Source: an uncultured archaeon
Lineage (GTDB): Archaea > Iainarchaeota > Iainarchaeia > Iainarchaeales > VGJJ01
Direction of reading: 5' to 3'
Length of the DNA: 33,516 nt
Assembly: GCA_964356075.1 (NCBI GenBank)
Contig: CAYHGC010000001.1
Coordinates: forward strand, 1-33,516
Position 1 is the stretch's first letter; every line of letters begins with the position of its first letter. Shown in pieces: positions 3,559 through 27,090 of this stretch. The position numbers were made by a program, and so were the translations under genes. Below the pieces are notes generated by a model, which ran no database searches, was not told the DNA's origin, and worked only from the letters and a program-made list of their open reading frames with translations.

Positions 3559-5007
3559 ATGACAAAAAAGAATGAACGCACAGATTGGAAAATTCTTTTA
3601 GGCGTCGGAGTCCTTCTCCTTATCGTGGGAATGGGATCCTATTTTCTCTTTCTTTCAAACCCAAGCAAAATCATTGAGATTCGGGACGATGCCCCCTGGT
3701 ATTTTCCAGCCGTGTTGGAAATCGAACCCGGAACAACCGTAAAATGGACCACGAACCTTCCAGCAGTACATCCGGTTATGGCATTGGAAGGGCCGGAAGA
3801 GATTCATTCCGGACACTTCACGAAGGAATTTGTCCATACTTTTTCCAAGCCGGGCATTTACGTATACATTTGCCCCATCCATCCTTACATGAAAGGAGTC
3901 ATTGGAGTGGGAATGAAAATTCCTCCTGAAAAAATTCCCATTTGGAATAATTGGCCACTCGAAGCCAAAAGTCCACCCGGAGAATTACCCCTTATTTCCG
4001 GTGAAGGAAAAATCTGGATGGACGCCCAATTTGAAAAGGTTCCTGGGAACAAAGAACCGGGCGCCATTTACGTGATCAATGCCGAAACATGGGAAATTGA
4101 AAAAATTATCACCGATTCGCGATTAAACAATCCTCATAATATCATTCCATTCGGAGACAAAATGCTTCAAACCAATTGGTTTGACCAATATTTGAGCGTG
4201 ATTGATCAAGCAACCGGAAAAATAGTCAATCACGTTCTGGTGGGAGAGAGCCCTGCGCACGTGATGCCGGGAATGAATGGCGAAAAAATCTATGTGACAT
4301 TACAAGGGGATGACGGGATTGCTATTTTGGATAAGCAGTTCAATCTCCTCGAAAAGGTTCGCGCGCCCAAAGGGCCTCACGGTCACATGATGAGTGGGGA
4401 TGGGAAACGCATGGCCGTTGCATCAACCGAAAAAGCGGAAATCAGCGTCTGGGATCTGGAAACAAATAAAATTATTTTTAGCGCCCCGCTATATGTTGAT
4501 GATTCTCACACCGTCATGGATGAAGAAGGAAAAGAACACACTCATACACTGCCTCTCATGGCCGGAATGACACTGGATGGAAAATTCGCATATGCAGCCA
4601 CGAGTAATGAGGGAATATTCTACGTGTTTGACGTGGACAACAAAACGCTTGTAAAATCATTCGAAATCGGAAAAGGACCTATTCAAGTCGGATTAAGTCC
4701 GGATGGAAAATACGTGGTGGTTCCACTAACCTATGATGCCGCCGCTGCCATTATTTCGACTGAAACATGGGAGATAGTACAAAAAGTTCCTAATGTCGGA
4801 TTGGGAGCACACGGGGTTGCATTTGGACCCCAAAAAGGAGGAGGATATTACGCCTATATCACCAATAAGTTCACGACCTGGGTCACGGTTATAAACATGG
4901 AAAATTTTCAAGTTGCAGGATACATCCCCCTCCCTCCTACTGCGTGGGGTGGACAAGGAATCGCGGTTGTACATGAAGGAGTGATGATGAATGACCAAAA
5001 CCAATAA
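3559..5007 (+). CDS. Membrane-anchored type-1 cupredoxin domain fused to a YVTN-type beta-propeller
   Basis: TM anchor, then a cupredoxin domain with HPVM... and YVYICPIHPYMKGVIGV (Cys-x2-His-x2-Met, a blue-copper ligand pattern). About 7 repeats of the 40-residue YVTN propeller type follow (IYVINAET, IYVTLQGDDGIAILD, ISVWD, FYVFD, YVVVPL, YAYITNK...VTVIN). ATG 3559 is preferred over tracked GTG 3550. Confidence 0.75.
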   Translation: MTKKNERTDWKILLGVGVLLLIVGMGSYFLFLSNPSKIIEIRDDAPWYFPAVLEIEPGTTVKWTTNLPAVHPVMALEGPEEIHSGHFTKEFVHTFSKPGIYVYICPIHPYMKGVIGVGMKIPPEKIPIWNNWPLEAKSPPGELPLISGEGKIWMDAQFEKVPGNKEPGAIYVINAETWEIEKIITDSRLNNPHNIIPFGDKMLQTNWFDQYLSVIDQATGKIVNHVLVGESPAHVMPGMNGEKIYVTLQGDDGIAILDKQFNLLEKVRAPKGPHGHMMSGDGKRMAVASTEKAEISVWDLETNKIIFSAPLYVDDSHTVMDEEGKEHTHTLPLMAGMTLDGKFAYAATSNEGIFYVFDVDNKTLVKSFEIGKGPIQVGLSPDGKYVVVPLTYDAAAAIISTETWEIVQKVPNVGLGAHGVAFGPQKGGGYYAYITNKFTTWVTVINMENFQVAGYIPLPPTAWGGQGIAVVHEGVMMNDQNQ

Positions 5008-5596
5008 CGGAGGTTCCTCGGCCACCAAATGGATCATCCCGATCCTCATCCTTCTTGGAATTGGAATCATCGGATATTCCTTGTTTGTCACATTCAACTC
5101 CGGGGCTTCCACCGAAGGAATCGTCACATGTCCTACCCCCGATACATGTTTTTGGAGCTCGCACTTTCATATTTATGCGCCTATTGAAATATGTGGAGAA
5201 GAATTCCCGTTACCGGTTGAACTCGGTTCCCTCCAAAAATCCCACACGCACGAAGAGAAAAACATTATTCACTGGCACGACAAACTTCCGTATGACAATG
5301 TCGCCAAAAAAATAATTGATACCACCGACCTTACACTCGGATCGTTTTATGATCAGGTTAACATTCCCTTCTCCTCTACTCAACTCGATGGAAAAACGAA
5401 CGGGGACACGTGTTCGGATGGGACGGTTGGTACGTGGAAAATGCTCGTAAATGGAAAACCCAATACGGAGTATCGTAAATATGAAATGCACGATCGGGAT
5501 GTCATATGGACGGTGTTTGATTCCCGCACGATGGATGAAGTGACGCAAGCATGGAGCCAAACGCCCATTCGTTTTCCCACTCTAGGAAACGGGTGA
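4991..5596 (+). CDS. Membrane-anchored His/Cys-rich extracytoplasmic protein (putative metal-binding)
   Basis: TM anchor, then CPTPDTCFWSSHFHIYAPIEICGEEF...KSHTHEEKNIIHWHD. Overlaps the upstream gene by 17 nt, consistent with an operon. Confidence 0.55.
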   Translation: MTKTNNGGSSATKWIIPILILLGIGIIGYSLFVTFNSGASTEGIVTCPTPDTCFWSSHFHIYAPIEICGEEFPLPVELGSLQKSHTHEEKNIIHWHDKLPYDNVAKKIIDTTDLTLGSFYDQVNIPFSSTQLDGKTNGDTCSDGTVGTWKMLVNGKPNTEYRKYEMHDRDVIWTVFDSRTMDEVTQAWSQTPIRFPTLGNG

Positions 5597-5606
5597 ACCC
5601 ATTCCC

Positions 5607-6467
5607 ATGAAAAAAACCATCCTGCTTGGAATGTTCATTATCCTATTACCTGCTGTTTTCGCGCAACAGGATTATTCTAATTTTACTCCCCCCGAATTAT
5701 CTATCCCTATCATCATTGGGTTGGGACTCATTGATTCCATTAACCCTTGTGTCATTGGCGTGCTGATTTTGCTCCTCACCATGCTTCTCAAATCGGGAAA
5801 CAAAAAAGCCATTTTGATTAACGGACTAACCTATACGTTGGGTGTCTACCTTACGTATTTGATTGGGGGATTAACGCTCTTGAGCTTGTTTAACTCCGTG
5901 CGCGACATTGTGGTGATTTCCCAATTGTTCTATTTTGTGATTGGAGCATTTGTCATGATTGCAGGATTCCTTGAAGTCAAGGATTATTTTTGGTACGGAC
6001 GATGGTTTTCGTTGGCGATTCCTCAACAACTCGTTAAACTGGTTGAAAAACAAGCCAAGGGTGCCCATGTCAGTCTTGCTGCGACATTCATGGCCGGAGC
6101 CATTCTCACTCTTGTTGAACTCCCCTGCACCGGTGCCCCCTATTTGGCCGTTCTCACCCTCATGTCGCAATCGGGGTATGGGTATGTGACGGGATTGCCA
6201 TTGCTACTACTCTACAACCTTGTCTTTGTCCTTCCCCTCTTGGCATTGATTTACCTCGCTTACACTGGAATGGGCCTCAAAATGATGGAATCCTGGAGAA
6301 AAGAACACCGTGGAGTCATGCGCCTAGGAATAGGAATCGCACTCCTGTTGATTGGGATATGGATCCTCTCCACCGTTGCGGGGAATCTATTGATTTCGTT
6401 GATGGTGGGAACGATAATCGTTATTCTCCTTATGGCTTTTCTTCAAAAAACGGGAATGGTGAAATAA
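5607..6467 (+). CDS. CcdA/DsbD-family transmembrane thiol:disulfide electron transporter
   Basis: Polytopic membrane protein with the two signature TM cysteines (DSINPCVIGVLILLL and VELPCTGAPYLAVL). Confidence 0.7.
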   Translation: MKKTILLGMFIILLPAVFAQQDYSNFTPPELSIPIIIGLGLIDSINPCVIGVLILLLTMLLKSGNKKAILINGLTYTLGVYLTYLIGGLTLLSLFNSVRDIVVISQLFYFVIGAFVMIAGFLEVKDYFWYGRWFSLAIPQQLVKLVEKQAKGAHVSLAATFMAGAILTLVELPCTGAPYLAVLTLMSQSGYGYVTGLPLLLLYNLVFVLPLLALIYLAYTGMGLKMMESWRKEHRGVMRLGIGIALLLIGIWILSTVAGNLLISLMVGTIIVILLMAFLQKTGMVK

Positions 6468-6468
6468 C

Positions 6469-7023
6469 ATGACCGTGGAACGCGTGGTAAAACGCAACGG
6501 ATCCGTTGAACGTTTTCAATCCTACAAAATAGTCGAGGGGCTTGAGAAATCATACGCGCATGCGCGCGGACGAAAAAAATTAATTGAAAAAATATGGATG
6601 GAAGAAATTGCCCTTCGTGTTCACCGTGTGCGCCCGAAACAACTTTCATCCGACACGATCCGAAAGATCATTGTGGATGATCTCAACACACGAAAAATGA
6701 ATGACATCGCAGACCATTACGACTTTTCTTTTTTACAAGAATCCCCATCTAAAATAAAAAAAGTATTGAAACGCAGTGGAAAAACCGAACTATTTTCCCC
6801 CAAAAAAATATTCAAATCCATCCGAAAAGCATTCTCTATGACGGGTATTACCAGCGAAAGAGAATGCGAGCGGGTCACGAAGATTATTATTCGACGCTTG
6901 GAAAAAATAGTTGGAAACAAACCGCTTCCTGTGGAAGCCATCCGTGAAGTGACGGAAGAAGCCCTAATGGAAACCGGCCACCATGCTGCGGCGCACCGAT
7001 ACATGCTACATCGTTACATGTAA
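6469..7023 (+). CDS. Stand-alone protein with two ATP-cone domains
   Basis: Two copies of the ATP-cone signature (VVKRNGSVERFQSYKIVEGLEKS and KVLKRSGKTELFSPKKIFKSIRKAF). Starts 1 nt after the CcdA stop. Confidence 0.7.
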   Translation: MTVERVVKRNGSVERFQSYKIVEGLEKSYAHARGRKKLIEKIWMEEIALRVHRVRPKQLSSDTIRKIIVDDLNTRKMNDIADHYDFSFLQESPSKIKKVLKRSGKTELFSPKKIFKSIRKAFSMTGITSERECERVTKIIIRRLEKIVGNKPLPVEAIREVTEEALMETGHHAAAHRYMLHRYM

Positions 7024-7069
7024 AAAAACGGGAAATAAGTAGTATCTTTTTGGAAAGTTCCTTGTTTTT

Positions 7070-7513
7070 ATGGAAGAAAAGTCATGCAACCCGTATATGG
7101 CCATTCCTCGCATGACCAAAATCTTTCTTCTTTCACTTACTGGATTTTTATTTGCAGGATTTTTGACCTATTCCAAACTTACCACGGGAACGTGTCCTCT
7201 CACGGAAGGATGCCCCTACTTGCTGGGATTGCCCGTCTGCGTGTATGGGCTGGTATTATTTGGAATCATTCTGGCCATGAGCATCCTTCATGATACCCAG
7301 CGGAACAACATGAGCCTATCCTGGATCCGCTGGGTTTCCCTTTTTGGAGTAGCGTTTTCAGGATACTATGCCGTGAATGAGCTCCTATTCCCGAGTTGTT
7401 TCATCGGCCCCTGCACGTACACACTACTTCTTCCGAGTTGTGTGTATGGTTTGGCTATGTATGCACTGATCGCATTTTGGGCTTGGAAAAAAGAAATGAA
7501 AATGACTGAATAA
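7070..7513 (+). CDS. Four-TM Cys-rich membrane protein, VKOR/DsbB-like (tentative)
   Basis: Internally duplicated motif: CPLTEGCPYLLGLPVCVYGLVLFG and CFIGPCTYTLLLPSCVYGLAMYA. The Cys-loop plus G(L/I)P..(V)YG resembles the VKOR N-terminal segment. No classical CxxC was seen. Confidence 0.45.
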   Translation: MEEKSCNPYMAIPRMTKIFLLSLTGFLFAGFLTYSKLTTGTCPLTEGCPYLLGLPVCVYGLVLFGIILAMSILHDTQRNNMSLSWIRWVSLFGVAFSGYYAVNELLFPSCFIGPCTYTLLLPSCVYGLAMYALIAFWAWKKEMKMTE

Positions 7514-7784
7514 ATGGGAAGATATGGTGGGATAGAAATTATTTTGGCCAAATGCAGGGATAATCAACGATTTTTTTCGAATGGCTCACGAAATAAGCGT
7601 GTTTTGATTACATCGTCTTTAGAAAGAAACTCAACATGGTAAAATCATAGATGCGTTTCAAGAAATTGGACGATTTGCCCTTGAACCTGATTGGGCAAAC
7701 CATTGCCAAAATACCCGTGAAGAAATGCATCGAAATGTATGAGAAAGGCCGCCAATACGTCAAAAAATAATCGACGCATTCCTA

Positions 7785-8081
7785 CTATTCTTCGGTTTTC
7801 ACGAGATGATCTTTGAATAAGTATTTTTTGAGCATGTCTTCAACCTGCGAATCGTTCTTTCGAATCCATTCCAATAACATCGCCGCGTGTTCTTTTTCTT
7901 CTTTGGCATTATGTAAGAGGATTTTTTTCAATTCTTCATTTTTGGTAGCATCTGCGCGTTGGTTATACCAATCAATCGCTTCCAATTCTTCGCGCAGTGA
8001 GTCAATGGCGCGCTTCAAATCAATGGTTTTTTCTGTAAGCTGAGTTCGTTCTTCGTGCAACATCGTGTACCCCATGATCAT
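7785..8081 (-). CDS. Encapsulated-ferritin (EncFtn)-type ferritin-like protein
   Basis: ...RAIDSLREELEAIDWYNQRADATKNEELKKILLHNAKEEKEHAAMLLEWIRKND... closely matches the EncFtn signature as I recall it from Rhodospirillum rubrum (EELEAVDWYDQR...HNRDEEKEHAAMTLEWLRRND). The Glu/ExxH iron ligands are present. Confidence 0.75.
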   Translation of the reverse strand: MIMGYTMLHEERTQLTEKTIDLKRAIDSLREELEAIDWYNQRADATKNEELKKILLHNAKEEKEHAAMLLEWIRKNDSQVEDMLKKYLFKDHLVKTEE

Positions 8082-8184
8082 CTCTCAAAAAAACAAGTTA
8101 TAAGGGGACTGTTCGGATGGGCCCCCGATCCTTGTAAAGGGCCCTCATCGATGGCTTAAAACACTTTAGGGGAGTTCTATTGGT

Positions 8185-8802
8185 ATGCACAAACCAATAT
8201 TCGTATCCGGACCCCACGGCGGGGGAAAGAGTGCCCTCATTCAGCGGTTGATTCAGCGGGATAACCGACTCACGGAAAACGATCTGACGATTGATGTGGC
8301 CGAGGAGTTTCAACATCTCAAATTGCTTTCTAGTTTTGAAAAAACATTGCTGCGCATGCTCATCCGTGTCGTGCGGGTGCAGCGTGCCTATGAAATGGCC
8401 AGTAATGAGCCGGATCGAATTATTCTGACGGATCGTTCCGTCTATGATTCTCTTGCGTACGCCCACGTCTACCGCGAACTGGAGTGGGTGACGTCCGAGG
8501 AATACATGAAACTCCACGCGGTCAAGGAAAAAGTTCCATTGCACGCGCGAACTATTATTCTCAACCCACCCGTGGAAACTCTGCTTGAACGGCTGGAAAA
8601 CCGGAAGAAAAATAAAGAACGCGTGGTTCGCGACGCATTGTTTAACGATGAAGACACGGTTGAATTTGTCACGCTTCTTCAGGAATCATTTACTGCCTTT
8701 GAAGATGACCCTAATGTCATTGTGGTGCGTAACAACGAAAAAGACGAAATAGAAAAAATACTCCAGTGGATTCACCACGCGCCCGTATTGTTGCGCTCGT
8801 AA
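8185..8802 (+). CDS. P-loop kinase, deoxynucleoside-kinase-like
   Basis: Walker A SGPHGGGKSALIQRL. DRSVYDSLAYAHV and LERLENRKKNKER motifs resemble the dNK/dNMP kinase family. Confidence 0.6.
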   Translation: MHKPIFVSGPHGGGKSALIQRLIQRDNRLTENDLTIDVAEEFQHLKLLSSFEKTLLRMLIRVVRVQRAYEMASNEPDRIILTDRSVYDSLAYAHVYRELEWVTSEEYMKLHAVKEKVPLHARTIILNPPVETLLERLENRKKNKERVVRDALFNDEDTVEFVTLLQESFTAFEDDPNVIVVRNNEKDEIEKILQWIHHAPVLLRS

Positions 8803-17252: not shown

Positions 17253-17325
17253 CCCGCCTTAGCATAGTAGCTAATGCGTCCGGCTGTAGACCGGAAGATC
17301 CCCGGTGCAAGTCCGGGAGGCGGGA
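17253..17325 (+). tRNA. tRNA-Tyr (anticodon GUA), archaeal type
   Basis: Manual cloverleaf. Acceptor CCCGCCT/AGGCGGG (C1-G72), D arm GCAT-AGTAGCTA-ATGC, anticodon arm TCCGG-CTGTAGA-CCGGA, 5-nt variable loop AGATC, T arm CCCGG-TGCAAGT-CCGGG, discriminator A. No CCA. Confidence 0.85.
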
Positions 17326-17328
17326 CTA
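17308..17328 (+). repeat. Direct repeat DR1 (attL core) = 3' end of tRNA-Tyr
   Basis: CAAGTCCGGGAGGCGGGACTA is identical over 21 nt to 25437-25457. Its 19-nt core AAGTCCGGGAGGCGGGACT is also found at 26963-26981. Confidence 0.9.
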
Positions 17329-17390
17329 TAACCATTAAATCAGTCCAGGAATATAGTATTCCAAAGGACATTTATCATTCAGCGGAAGGA

Positions 17391-18326
17391 TTGAAGAGAG
17401 CCCTGGTGGCCCTTTCCGCGGTTACAGCCATTAGTGAAGGTGGTAGGGGAGAGATACAACGGTACGTGCGATATTCTCTTGCCCAAGGAATCAAACCCAT
17501 TCGTGTTAGAAAAACAGTTTACATGTTGCGAGACATGTCTATCGTTCTAGGAAAACCATTTTCGGAATGCACTAGAGATGATATTGAAGGATTGATGGTT
17601 GAGATTGGCCAACGCGATTATGCGGAGTGGACAAAAGCCGATTATCGGATAATCCTTAAGCGGTTTTACAAATGGTTACTGGGTAACAATGAGGAATTTC
17701 CTATCCAGGTTAAATGGATTCGGTACCGAGAGCCAAAGAATACCATCTTACCAGAGGAACTACTAACCGAAGAGGAAGTTTTACGAGTAGTCGATAAAAC
17801 AAAATTGATTCGGGATAAAGCATTCATCTATTTACTGTATGAAAGCGGAGCGCGAATCGGTGAAATACTTACACTTTCAATCAAACATGTCACTATTGGA
17901 AATCCAATATCATCCATTTTAGTAAGTGGGAAAACGGGTCAACGAAGAATTCTATTTGTAAAAAGCGCAAGATATCTGAGAGAATGGCTGAGCGAACATC
18001 CGTTTAGAGAACATCCCGAATCCTCTTTGTGGGTTCGTATGGACTCTGCTCGAGTAAGCGGGAAGTGGACAAATCCAGCAGAAAAGGAAATCACCTATAC
18101 AAGTGTGAAGAAGCTTCTTGGGAAAGCGTTTTTGGAAGCCGGGATAAAGAAAAAACACCGATGTCACCTATTCCGCCATTCTAGAGCTACTTTTTTGGCT
18201 CAGCATCTAACCGAAGCGCAGTTGAAACAATTTTTTGGATGGACTCAATCTAGCGATATGGCCGGGAGGTATGTTCACCTAAGCGGGAGGGATTTAGACG
18301 GTGCAATTTTGAGAGTGTATTCATAA
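17391..18326 (+). CDS. Tyrosine recombinase / integrase (XerC/D-like)
   Basis: SAM-like N-terminal domain plus a catalytic domain with ...GARIGEIL..., HLFRHSRATFLAQH (HxxR) and GRYVHLS (catalytic Tyr). The tracked ORF (17274) starts inside the tRNA. There is no ATG after the att core, so the start is probably TTG 17391 or GTG 17406 and remains uncertain. Confidence 0.85.
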   Translation: MKRALVALSAVTAISEGGRGEIQRYVRYSLAQGIKPIRVRKTVYMLRDMSIVLGKPFSECTRDDIEGLMVEIGQRDYAEWTKADYRIILKRFYKWLLGNNEEFPIQVKWIRYREPKNTILPEELLTEEEVLRVVDKTKLIRDKAFIYLLYESGARIGEILTLSIKHVTIGNPISSILVSGKTGQRRILFVKSARYLREWLSEHPFREHPESSLWVRMDSARVSGKWTNPAEKEITYTSVKKLLGKAFLEAGIKKKHRCHLFRHSRATFLAQHLTEAQLKQFFGWTQSSDMAGRYVHLSGRDLDGAILRVYS

Positions 18327-23290: not shown

Positions 23291-23755
23291 GTGGGATCAC
23301 GTGTGTCTTCAAAACCAATTACACGGGAACAGTATATTGCAAAACTGGAAGAGGACGAAGGGAAAAAAATTGAGAAAATTAGTGCATTTGGAAATATCTT
23401 AAATCATTGTTCGAGATTCCGTGAAGAAAAAATTTCTACTCTCGATGAGTTTAGGCGTCTTTTTTGGTGTCCAAAGGGGCCGACTGGTCCTCATGATGAA
23501 ATAGATAAACTTTCAAATAACACAAGAAATATTGGTGCTATACTTGAGAGTGCGCGGGAAGATTTGGACCAATGTCCAAAAGCATATTTTGAAGATAGAG
23601 AGCCTGTTGGGCCAAAAAGATGTTTTTTCTTGATAGAAGCGGGTGGTAGAAAAGAAATTTATAATGGAAATCACCGCGCGGGTGGAATTATCCGTAAAAT
23701 TTTACAGGGAAGTGAGTTCAAAGAAATTACTTCCTATGTGGGAGTTATTGAATAG
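23291..23755 (+). CDS. Hypothetical protein with ParB/DGQHR-like NGNHR motif (tentative)
   Basis: GTG start about 30 nt downstream of the CATATATAAC TATA box. The C-terminal segment FFLIEAGGRKEIYNGNHRAGGIIRKIL resembles the ParB-nuclease-fold (D/N)GxHR motif. Confidence 0.45.
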   Translation: MGSRVSSKPITREQYIAKLEEDEGKKIEKISAFGNILNHCSRFREEKISTLDEFRRLFWCPKGPTGPHDEIDKLSNNTRNIGAILESAREDLDQCPKAYFEDREPVGPKRCFFLIEAGGRKEIYNGNHRAGGIIRKILQGSEFKEITSYVGVIE

Positions 23756-24494
23756 TATTTTTTTCTTTGTTTATCTCTGGAAAGGAACGCAATTTACGAA
23801 GTTCTGTGTTGAGGCTGGATTTTGGAAAATGTTTTCTTTCAAAGTTGCCTAGTTCACGAATGGCTGTCTTGTTGGTCTTCAAGGACTCTTCAAAAAACCA
23901 TTTATTGAAAGAGATAATTTCTGAATGGTAGGTTGTTACCAGTTTTTTGATATTGATATCGTCGTTGCTATTTTTTAGATGCTCCTTCACTACTGGGTTT
24001 ATTTTTTCGTCATTCAATAGTTGACTCCTTTTTATCCAAACGTCTTTTTGATAACTTTTTTCTCCACTAGAGGACCATGAAGAAAGTTGTCTTACAACCG
24101 TGTTTGCTCCCTCCCTGTGCATTATGAAATCCCAAATTTCTTGTAGCAATTGAACGTCGATATTTTCCATCATTTTATCAATTCTTTTGTTACACCCATC
24201 GTCAAAGTTACTGTTTCCAAAATGTTTTCTATATCGGTAGGTATATCCAACCAATGCACGGGCACTAAGACAATAGTTGTGGAAAAAGCGTTTTATTCTA
24301 AATCCATAGTTTGCTGAACGCCTTCCATCGAACGCCTTAATATCCCTTTCAAAATTGTTGATTTCTTTTACCAATTGCTTGTAATTTTCATGAGTAATAT
24401 AGAACTCCGTTTTAATCATGTGGAGTTCTCTGAATATCTTGTACCCTTCGAGTTCCATTATTTTTCGACGCGCCTCTGTTAGAGCAAAGTTCAT
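23745..24494 (-). CDS. Hypothetical helical protein (Abi-like is only a guess)
   Basis: 249 aa. It contains ...RFFHNYCLSARALVGYTYRYRKHFGN... but no clean catalytic motif that I can identify. Confidence 0.5.
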   Translation of the reverse strand: MNFALTEARRKIMELEGYKIFRELHMIKTEFYITHENYKQLVKEINNFERDIKAFDGRRSANYGFRIKRFFHNYCLSARALVGYTYRYRKHFGNSNFDDGCNKRIDKMMENIDVQLLQEIWDFIMHREGANTVVRQLSSWSSSGEKSYQKDVWIKRSQLLNDEKINPVVKEHLKNSNDDINIKKLVTTYHSEIISFNKWFFEESLKTNKTAIRELGNFERKHFPKSSLNTELRKLRSFPEINKEKNTIQ

Positions 24495-24552
24495 TTAGAA
24501 ATAGTCTGCTGTTGGGTTTAATGGCCTAACTCAAAGGGCCCAAACCGCGGTA

Positions 24553-25377
24553 ATGGCTCTTTCTGCGTTTTCTCCTGCTATACTTTTTATGAATTGGGGT
24601 TCTTATAGACTATATGGTGGTTTCGTGGTAAAGAAAAATATTCGGGCCATTTTTGACCTGCTGATTCAGCGTCGATTCTGGATACTTGGTGTTCTATTCT
24701 ACGGATTTTTTTTGTGGTTGCTGACAACAATGTTATGGTCCATGAATACTCCATTGGCCGTCGTAGTATTAGCTGCTCTTGTTGGTCCTCCGCTTGTTGC
24801 AAAATTTATCTATGATCGTCCACTTGGCCCTATGCTTGAATTCCTTGGTAGAGGTGTGGAGACAGGAATGGTCCCAAGAGGGGAAGCACCGGATGCTAAT
24901 CAGAAAAAGAGTCTAAAAATCATGTTCGACACGAATGTTTTCAATAAAATGGCTGATGGGTTGCTGGATATCGAGCAGCTGAGGCGCAGTACTCTTTATG
25001 GTTTTGAGTATTTTACAACGCATGTGCAAACGGATCAAATCGCAGCAACCCCTGATAATGAAAGCGAAAAACGAAAAAGAATGGTCTTATTTCAAACCGA
25101 AATTAAGCCAACGGTTTTACCCACAACGTCCTTCGTTCTTGGAGTTTCTCGACTGGGTTATGGTAACCTTAGTGATGGTAAGCTGCTTGACAAAATTCGG
25201 AGAGGAAATAAAAGCATCCGAAAAACAACGGACGCGCTCATTGCTGAAACGTGTATCAAAAATAAAATAACCCTTGTTACTGAAGATACTGAACTAATAA
25301 AGCGCATGAAAGAGGAAGGTGGGAAAGTCATCGGAATTCAGGAGCTAAAAGAATTCCTTAACTTCACTGTCCGTTGA
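24553..25377 (+). CDS. Membrane-tethered PIN-like domain protein
   Basis: The N-terminal ~95 aa hold 2-3 TM helices. The C-terminal ~150 aa have PIN hallmarks: KIMFDTNVFNKM (first Asp) and TTDALIAETCIKNKITLVTEDTELI (distal Asp). An alternative shorter start at ATG 24922 cannot be excluded. Confidence 0.55.
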   Translation: MALSAFSPAILFMNWGSYRLYGGFVVKKNIRAIFDLLIQRRFWILGVLFYGFFLWLLTTMLWSMNTPLAVVVLAALVGPPLVAKFIYDRPLGPMLEFLGRGVETGMVPRGEAPDANQKKSLKIMFDTNVFNKMADGLLDIEQLRRSTLYGFEYFTTHVQTDQIAATPDNESEKRKRMVLFQTEIKPTVLPTTSFVLGVSRLGYGNLSDGKLLDKIRRGNKSIRKTTDALIAETCIKNKITLVTEDTELIKRMKEEGGKVIGIQELKEFLNFTVR

Positions 25378-25436
25378 TTAATATCATACAGATAATGGTG
25401 TTATATAAAGTATGAAACATATTATTTTTTATTAGC

Positions 25437-25457
25437 CAAGTCCGGGAGGCGGGACTA
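25437..25457 (+). repeat. Direct repeat DR2 (attR of element A / attL of element B)
   Basis: CAAGTCCGGGAGGCGGGACTA is identical to 17308-17328. The flanking sequence is unrelated to the tRNA. Confidence 0.9.
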
Positions 25458-25529
25458 ATCCATTCACCTACTCAAGCTTCGCTTTCGTCCCGCCGGACGG
25501 ATTAAATATCAAAGAACGGTTTGTATCCT

Positions 25530-26878: not shown

Positions 26879-26962
26879 GATAATGCATCCTGTCAACATC
26901 ACTAACTGCACTAACCTCAGCGAGTCCCATAAGGACGAGCCTTCGAATAAGAACCGGTTGCT

Positions 26963-26981
26963 AAGTCCGGGAGGCGGGACT
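26963..26981 (+). repeat. Direct repeat DR3 (distal att copy; displaced tRNA 3' remnant)
   Basis: AAGTCCGGGAGGCGGGACT is identical to the cores of DR1 and DR2. The upstream AAGAACCGGTTGCTAAGTCC resembles tRNA positions AAGATCCCCGGTGCAAGTCC with indels. Confidence 0.85.
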
Positions 26982-27090
26982 CATCCTTATCCATGTCTCG
27001 TCTTTTGACTTTTTTTTATTGTGGCGAAAGCGCGTCCGAGTCATTATTAACATTTTCTCGACAAAATGATGCTATGGAGAATGAATCCCT

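Follow-up and report, generated by a model that had tools for sequence, protein, structure and literature searches.

Of the toxin families of archaea, that of the PIN/VapC nucleases is the most abundant, and the control of those that lack an antitoxin is poorly understood. Matelska et al. 2017 (PMC5499597) described PIN toxins that are coupled to type I restriction-modification (RM) systems, sometimes without antitoxins, and also a membrane-anchored group, PIN.COG4956 (YacL-like), which has four N-terminal transmembrane (TM) helices and a TRAM domain. Here we describe a PIN gene in a window of 33,516 nucleotides, by which we mean the whole stretch of DNA that was analyzed; it is contig 1 (CAYHGC010000001.1) of the genome of an uncultured DPANN archaeon (1.0 Mb in 113 contigs, 88% complete). 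The gene, at 24553–25377, joins a hydrophobic N-terminal segment in frame to a VapC-like PIN domain and belongs to an integrated element. The reading to which we lean, with slightly better than even confidence, is that the protein is a stand-alone conflict or addiction-type nuclease. The parts of the gene and its upstream spacer are the following.

24553–25377, + strand: N-terminal membrane module and PIN domain in one frame, 274 amino acids (stop codon at 25375–25377; mean predicted local distance difference test score, pLDDT, of 81.9 in the AlphaFold2 model)
24553–24675, + strand: residues 1–41, predicted cytoplasmic N-terminal stretch (hydropathy, AlphaFold2)
24676–24738, + strand: residues 42–62, predicted TM helix 1 (hydropathy and AlphaFold2)
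24751–24813, + strand: residues 67–87, predicted TM helix 2, kinked at P79-P80
24850–24912, + strand: residues 100–120, flexible linker without secondary structure (pLDDT 51–59)
24913–25374, + strand: residues 121–274, VapC-like PIN domain, with the internal M124 at 24922
24495–24552, no strand: 58-bp divergent spacer with one TATA-like element, TTTAAT/ATTAAA, at 24517–24522

A predicted PIN domain with conserved acidic residues

A sequence-only reading of this DNA had assigned the C-terminal part of the open reading frame (ORF) to the PIN fold and had proposed a check for four acidic residues in it, and both the fold and the residues were recovered when the protein was modeled with AlphaFold2 from a 45-sequence alignment. 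The domain at residues 121–274 was modeled with pLDDT values of 95–98 and with the strand and helix order of a PIN domain, the strands being at 121–125, 151–156, 187–189, 240–242, and 258–260 with helices between them. The Foldseek search against the PDB listed 50 matches, and all 50 were PIN-domain proteins, the best with TM-scores (normalized to the target) of 0.55–0.69. Among the matches were Shigella VapC, 1y82, PAE2754, VapC4, FitB, VapC11, the HARP/PRORP RNase P, and 3ix7, together with PIN-domain subunits of the RNA exosome and of the small-subunit processome. A profile search of the PDB sequences found the archaeal PIN structures 1y82 and 1v96, to whose aspartates D227 and D245 align.

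The two PIN motifs, MFDTNVF at residues 124–130 and TDALIAETCIKNKITLVTEDTEL at residues 226–248, contain the invariant columns D126, D227, and D245. Over the 45 relatives, D126, H157, Q159, D227, I230, T243, and D245 are invariant, while N128, T156, D161, T191, S199, R200, and E232 are nearly so, with D161 conserved in at least 90%. In the model, D126, D161, D227, and D245 are each located at a canonical PIN secondary-structure position. The C-terminal domain as modeled is thus of the PIN/VapC type, with these four conserved aspartates as candidate catalytic residues.

In terms of family models, the protein falls just short of the Pfam PIN cut-off (PF01850 clan; 22.9 bits against a gathering cut-off of 23.6), and the match covers only the C-terminal third, at residues 214–251. 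One relative (P0002) passes that cut-off at 29.2 bits. The score against the NCBIfam VapC model NF047959 is 25.5 bits, which is below its cut-off of 80.

The membrane module and the translated length of the protein

The sequence-only reading had counted two or three hydrophobic helices ahead of the PIN domain. Two of these were recovered by hydropathy and by AlphaFold2, at residues 42–62 and 67–87. The third was not, because residues 1–26 are only weakly hydrophobic and have pLDDT values below 50. A basic amphipathic helix at residues 28–41 (K27, K28, R31, R40, and R41) precedes TM helix 1 in the model, and the modeled helices of the module extend over residues 28–63 and 67–88. TM helix 1 has a mean Kyte-Doolittle value of up to 1.92, a negative simple Hessa sum, and a pLDDT of about 86. 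TM helix 2 reaches a Kyte-Doolittle value of 2.27 and was modeled as two helices, 67–77 and 79–88. There are five basic residues before TM helix 1, a neutral loop of 3–4 residues between the helices, and basic residues after TM helix 2. Because of the basic flanks and the short neutral loop, the module would be a hairpin with both ends inside, so that the PIN domain would face the cytoplasm.

Several signs indicate that the N-terminal extension is genuinely coding. Of 100,000 shuffles matched for composition, only 28 keep the 139 codons before M124 open, and the codon-position composition of this stretch (G1 0.30, T2 0.42) resembles that of the genome's own hydrophobic-protein genes. The codon log-odds score is −0.105 in frame 0 compared to −0.49 to −0.82 in the other five frames. 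There is no in-frame start codon upstream of 24553. The same DNA is present in two further independent assemblies from the same groundwater site, one 100% identical and one with a single mismatch, and an assembly artefact is excluded because of this. The mismatch, which is the sole change between assemblies, results in the conservative substitution F49I in TM helix 1. In none of the three assemblies did a gene caller choose M124; even on identical DNA, the calls were either the full 274 amino acids or 262 amino acids from M13 (24589).

The start codons of this genome have a recognizable context. A strong T-then-A-rich signal is found genome-wide at −31 to −23 before the first ATGs of long ORFs, centered about 27 nucleotides upstream, and a Shine-Dalgarno-like motif precedes about 21% of the long ORFs. 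The majority of genes would thus seem to lack a leader and to have a constant spacing between TATA box and start codon. By a position-weight score of this upstream context, the ATG at 24553 falls at the 8th percentile of the genome's first ATGs. The ATG at 24922 (M124) ranks at the 50th percentile when compared with first ATGs and at the 94th when compared with internal ones. This scoring weakly opposes the long form. Since it favors the ATG at 24922 over that at 24553, a soluble isoform of 151 amino acids may also be made, or may be made instead.

Taken further, the same scores would suit a product that is simply a soluble solo PIN of 151 amino acids beginning at M124, a possibility that we regard as unlikely. 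The upstream 123 codons would then belong to a membrane gene that has decayed or been fused by accident, or would form a leader that is not translated, which we judge to be unlikely to the same degree. The ATG at 24922 has a context typical of the genome's real starts and the ATG at 24553 a poor one, no homologue of the N-terminal module was found, and about 95 of the 150 best cluster representatives among the relatives are solo proteins of 140–160 amino acids that start 0–4 residues from the MFDTN motif. Against such a product, the open frame and its codon-position periodicity speak for translation of the upstream codons in frame with the PIN domain, a start at M124 would mean 427 bp of non-coding DNA in a genome that is compact at 1 Mb, and no gene caller picked it. 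M124 also occupies a conserved hydrophobic position of the first β-strand, where many fused relatives have I, V, L, or F. M124 therefore need not be a start codon, since these fused relatives have no Met at the junction.

Relatives and their N-terminal modules

Relatives were collected by a word-based search and by an exhaustive phmmer search. The first word-based search returned seven solo PINs of 153–181 amino acids that started three residues before MFDTNVF. The conclusion that these solo-only matches refute the fusion was rejected, as the phmmer search showed them to be an artefact of search sensitivity and of a length filter.

The exhaustive search yielded 769 homologues, and the architectures were counted over the best 150 cluster representatives, with clusters formed at 50% identity. 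Most of these representatives (about 95 of 150) are solo PINs, about 17 have soluble N-terminal domains of 40–160 residues, and about 15 are proteins of 550–640 amino acids. Fusions of two TM helices to a PIN domain recur, in 13 other 50%-identity clusters with proteins of 275–315 amino acids. This is the fusion architecture that the sequence-only reading had proposed to search for. That reading would have been refuted if the homologues consistently began at the internal Met, and the outcome was mixed. Most of the best representatives do begin there, but in the subclade nearest to the window protein 25 of the 39 members are extended. According to a quick tree, this subclade consists of 14 solo, 13 TM, and 12 soluble N-domain proteins.

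The soluble N-domains are winged-helix-like, but the evidence for each is weak: 3 of the 8 that were compared match Pfam HTH_45, and in the PDB the top hits are Sso10a and eS10. One relative (P0014) has an N-terminus that resembles a ribbon-helix-helix (RHH) domain by eye. A 231-amino-acid winged-helix-like PIN protein from the same genus is 42% identical to the window protein and has the junction ...DKKGVIFDSN, which lacks a Met. In this subfamily, as judged from these alignments, the catalytic domain is conserved and the N-terminus is interchangeable, being either absent, winged-helix-like, RHH-like, or a two-helix membrane anchor.

The TM label requires at least three origins on the quick tree, where ten of the TM-PINs fall in one clade. 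This tree leaves the window protein in a polytomy and so does not separate inheritance of its anchor from an independent gain. The hhalign comparison found no homology between its N-terminal module and that of the TM-PIN family, so the anchor was probably gained independently or has diverged beyond recognition. By these comparisons the TM-PIN architecture is recurrent, and the anchor of the window protein is itself an orphan.

Genomic neighborhoods of the subfamily

At 16 of the 78 loci from named genomes, RM genes of type I or type IIG or AlbA_2 genes are found no more than a few kb from the PIN gene and in the same orientation. At several of the RM loci the RM gene abuts or overlaps the start of the PIN gene, with a 4-nucleotide overlap with type IIG genes and a distance of 0–17 nucleotides from hsdM or hsdS. 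These loci fit the PIN-RM link reported previously (PMC5499597). A conflict or addiction role for the subfamily is suggested because the soluble relatives are often found within RM operons. No conserved small upstream gene was found for the solo relatives, and no plausible small ORF was found in the 58-bp spacer upstream of the window gene or between 25377 and the repeat at 25435–25461. The absence of an adjacent small antitoxin gene, which the sequence-only reading had already remarked on, was thus confirmed, and the subfamily has no conserved adjacent antitoxin.

The RM-linked loci that were inspected (L012, L014–L016; L011, L013, L017, L018, L035; L031, L037, L057, L066) come, for the winged-helix-like PINs, from DPANN and other archaeal metagenome-assembled genomes (MAGs). 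At L012, L014, L015, and L016, the start of the winged-helix-like PIN gene overlaps by 4 nucleotides the 3′ end of a gene for a type IIG restriction methylase of about 900 amino acids. Other winged-helix-like PIN relatives are located between AlbA_2/HATPase_c_4 and hsdS/hsdM genes, and the PIN-containing proteins of 550–610 amino acids come after hsdM. The genes are co-directional in all of these arrangements.

Some further neighbors were observed at individual loci. Directly downstream of the winged-helix-like PIN at L014 is a 386-amino-acid protein (4558–5715, + strand) with an N-terminal helix-turn-helix (HTH) and a HEFAH zinc-peptidase motif, which is ImmA/IrrE/DUF955-like by eye. An association of HTH-DUF955 proteins with PIN has been described (PMC5499597), and this neighbor was read as an instance of it. 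In a Nitrospira MAG (L031), a 1047-amino-acid protein (5135–8275, + strand) downstream of a 558-amino-acid PIN protein and hsdM has a SIR2-like N-terminus (GAGAS) by eye and is possibly a defense gene. At the same-genus locus (L002; G001:C14, 1249–1944, 1944–2477, 2496–3134), the 231-amino-acid winged-helix-like PIN is followed by a 177-amino-acid ORF with overlapping stop and start codons, and a gene in convergent orientation codes for an endonuclease (PF10107) that is related to the Holliday-junction resolvases of archaea.

The integrated element and the divergent 249-residue protein

The sequence-only reading had placed the PIN gene next to the right attachment site (attR) of an integrated element, and this location was borne out by the repeat of the tRNA-Tyr 3′ end at 25435–25461. 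The other features of this element, referred to as element A, are the following.

17253–17326: tRNA-Tyr, a 74-nucleotide class I tRNA and one boundary of element A
17274–18326: tyrosine-recombinase gene, after the tRNA-Tyr
23745–24494, − strand: predicted all-helical orphan ORF, 249 amino acids, divergent from the PIN gene and with the highest codon score among its six frames
25435–25461, + strand: attR of element A, a direct repeat of the tRNA-Tyr 3′ end, 58 nucleotides past the PIN stop codon

Class I tRNA-Tyr is the archaeal type. Copies of the tRNA-Tyr 3′-end repeat are found at 17306, 25435–25461, and 26960–26986. With these repeats and the tyrosine recombinase, the PIN gene is therefore the last gene in the first of two tandem integrated elements. 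Within the phylum, the window's type of PIN is sporadic, with only 2 carriers among 215 genomes. Viral contigs yielded a single, distant relative, so that viruses are not typical carriers of the family.

A second TM-PIN gene was found near an integrase. At locus L009 (JGI Ga0366829_1000068; 29–2275, 6001–6903), a gene for a 300-amino-acid protein with two TM helices and a PIN domain is located about 4 kb from a gene for a 463-amino-acid tyrosine recombinase. It is near a gene resembling TrbC/type IV secretion system pilins and among small proteins of archaeal type. This looks like a second case of a TM-PIN as mobile-element cargo.

Both ORFs of the divergent pair are as first read from the DNA, the PIN gene (274 amino acids) starting with ATG on the + strand and its 249-amino-acid neighbor lying on the − strand. 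For the latter, gene callers chose 237 amino acids from M13 (24458) rather than the longest ORF of 249 amino acids (24494). It is convergent with a 154-amino-acid ORF (23291–23755, + strand), and the 3′ ends of the two overlap by 11 nucleotides (23745–23755). The 154-amino-acid ORF had no family match in Pfam or NCBIfam. The genes of this island, the PIN and orphan genes included, have atypical codon usage with low absolute codon scores.

The sequence-only reading had further suggested that the TM-PIN and the 249-residue protein could together form a two-gene abortive-infection or defense-type module. In an abortive-infection or toxin-antitoxin-like pair of this kind, the orphan would act as a sensor or neutralizer. 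We consider this improbable, and the pairing was not recovered elsewhere. The arrangement itself allows for co-regulation: the genes diverge over a 58-bp spacer with one TATA-like element (24517–24522). Counted from the start codon of the orphan gene, the element spans −28 to −23, which is suitable; counted from that of the PIN gene, it spans −36 to −31, which is roughly so, and it may be a shared promoter element. Both genes are also island cargo with atypical codon usage, and the one weak relative of the orphan is likewise on an integrase-bearing element. That relative is a 233-amino-acid protein (G132) that was found among 196 genomes of the order and is 19–21% identical over the N-terminal 100–200 residues. 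Its gene (L089; G132:C158, 323–907, 939–1640, 1620–2228) comes directly after integrase gene fragments and is convergent with a gene for a 202-amino-acid protein in which TM helices occur together with a winged-helix-like C-terminus.

The relative of the orphan has no PIN neighbor, which is one of several points that speak against a two-gene module. Its similarity to the orphan is low, and no homologue of the orphan was found in the word-based search of 5.8 billion proteins. Nothing was found for the orphan in Pfam, NCBIfam, or PADLOC, and PADLOC was negative for the PIN protein as well. The AlphaFold2 single-sequence model of the orphan was all-helical but, at a pLDDT of 52.9, too poor for a fold search. 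The neighbors at the three other TM-PIN loci with context are unrelated to the orphan and to each other: a 384-amino-acid coiled-coil protein at one, a metallophosphoesterase and a 207-amino-acid protein at another, and a RusA-like protein and a 221-amino-acid protein at the third. The same-genus PIN relative also has different neighbors. The two-gene module is thus unsupported, because the sole link between the genes is their divergent layout around one TATA-like element. Taken together, the orphan and its relative suggest a small, fast-evolving family of island cargo proteins.

Proposed function of the membrane-tethered nuclease

If the protein is a stand-alone conflict or addiction-type nuclease, it may be pictured as follows. 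A single polypeptide would form a membrane hairpin of two helices with both ends in the cytoplasm, and a disordered linker of about 20 residues would connect this hairpin to a VapC-like, metal-dependent PIN endonuclease. The nuclease is most likely an RNase that cuts RNA as the VapC enzymes do. The N-terminal module, in this case a membrane tether, may restrict where or when the nuclease acts, and the protein would work without the 249-residue neighbor as a partner. It would be cargo of an element integrated at tRNA-Tyr in a DPANN archaeon (Iainarchaeum/Diapherotrites-like).

Several points, in addition to the start-site scores, weigh against this reading. The conflict or addiction role is borrowed from the soluble relatives, and RM linkage is absent both at the three TM-PIN loci with context and at the window itself. 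A search of PADLOC-DB v2 at E ≤ 0.1 gave no match for the 274-residue protein, the 249-residue protein, or four neighboring proteins. The candidate active site was assigned from conserved columns and secondary-structure positions. The predicted TM helices were called from a hydropathy scan and AlphaFold2. No homologue of the N-terminal module was found anywhere; in the comparison with the module of the TM-PIN family, the hhalign probability was 2%, and the family profile matched the PIN part only. In the quick tree the window PIN is placed in an unresolved polytomy on a long branch.

The stand-alone reading can be carried further, to the idea that the two-helix PINs, among them the window protein with an anchor that it would have gained independently, are nuclease effectors that are encoded by one gene and gated by the membrane. 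They would make up a class not described before, found in DPANN archaea and in other uncultured archaea. The hairpin would keep the PIN RNase inactive or locally confined and would release or activate it upon a disturbance of the envelope, which could be caused by a virus entering or leaving the cell or by conjugative transfer, or could arise at a contact site between symbiont and host. The membrane module would then stand in for the antitoxin, and the repeated gain of non-homologous two-helix anchors in one PIN subfamily would be a case of convergent evolution. We hold this extension to be doubtful and rather unlikely.

What can be said of the subfamily is that it swaps its N-terminal modules, and that at least two of its membrane anchors are mutually unrelated. 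Such swapping suggests that regulation or localization is achieved in cis and not through a second protein. Should the tether gate the nuclease, this one gene would amount to a compact device for conflict or addiction on DPANN mobile elements, and there is almost no experimental knowledge of defense in DPANN archaea. Should the tether not gate it, the protein is simply a further PIN fusion that is specific to its lineage and encoded on an integrated element.

Comparison with known systems

The PIN domain of the window protein has the same fold and the same order of elements as the type II VapC toxins (Shigella VapC 5ecw, Pyrococcus VapC4 1v96/5h4g, and PAE2754 1v8o). The acidic residues of these toxins are likewise located at the ends of strands β1 and β4 and at helix N-termini, as D126, D161, D227, and D245 are here, and their C-terminal signature, D-A-L-I-x-x-T-A ... 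L-V-T-x-D, aligns directly with the window PIN. In contrast to the VapC toxins, the window protein has no adjacent VapB-like antitoxin gene, bears a 120-residue N-terminal membrane module, and scores below the cut-offs of both the NCBIfam VapC model (25.5 against 80 bits) and the Pfam PIN model. It also contains the family-specific motifs T-H-x-Q-x-D and L-G-V-S-R and an insertion between strand β3 and the following helix.

A PIN domain tethered by N-terminal helices is not in itself new. The sequence-only reading had called a TM-anchored PIN unusual, but PIN.COG4956 is a membrane-anchored group that was already cataloged (PMC5499597), and the PIN domain of its member 3ix7 is the Foldseek match of rank 15. 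The window protein lacks the defining features of this group. It has two TM helices, not four, and no TRAM domain, as there is no Pfam TRAM match and the protein ends about 30 residues past the last catalytic Asp. The window protein also belongs to a different PIN subfamily, and it is archaeal, sporadic, and borne on a mobile element, whereas PIN.COG4956 is broadly conserved in bacteria.

By analogy with PIN.COG4956 (4TM-PIN-TRAM) or with membrane-anchored RNases, the window protein might instead be a membrane-localized nuclease for RNA processing or turnover that serves the physiology of the element or of the cell. Membrane-anchored PINs, presumably with housekeeping functions, are widespread in bacteria (PMC5499597), and the presence of 3ix7 among the structural matches is in keeping with such a role. 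We assign this a low probability. The occurrence of the gene in 2 of 215 genomes of the phylum, on an integrated element, is unlike a housekeeping distribution, the protein has neither TRAM nor another RNA-binding domain, and its closest PIN relatives are in RM or defense neighborhoods.

The winged-helix-like PINs and solo PINs of the RM operons (L011–L018, L035) are of the same subfamily as the window protein and likewise have no separate antitoxin. Their N-terminal module is soluble and their genes overlap or abut type IIG, hsdM, or hsdS genes, whereas the window protein has a membrane module and no RM neighbor.

The archaeal proteins with two TM helices and a PIN domain (P0012, P0016, P0025, P0029, P0033, P0035, P0040, P0048, P0053, P0055, P0072, P0089), which are 277–315 amino acids long and come from uncultured archaea, are a further point of comparison, and no prior description of this architecture in archaea was found in the literature searched, the coverage of which is partial. 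They differ from the window protein in having a helical domain, LEKYVKYS..EEL...HWLTKL, and a juxtamembrane motif, LDDGT..LRR..IELVL, both of which it lacks. Their PIN domains are of the same subclade as that of the window protein (within the polytomy) and are 38–42% identical to it. They have the same predicted layout, in which the N-terminus is cytoplasmic and leads into two TM helices, and about 35 residues of spacer then connect these to the PIN domain. Their member at L009 is encoded near an integrase gene, as is the window PIN.

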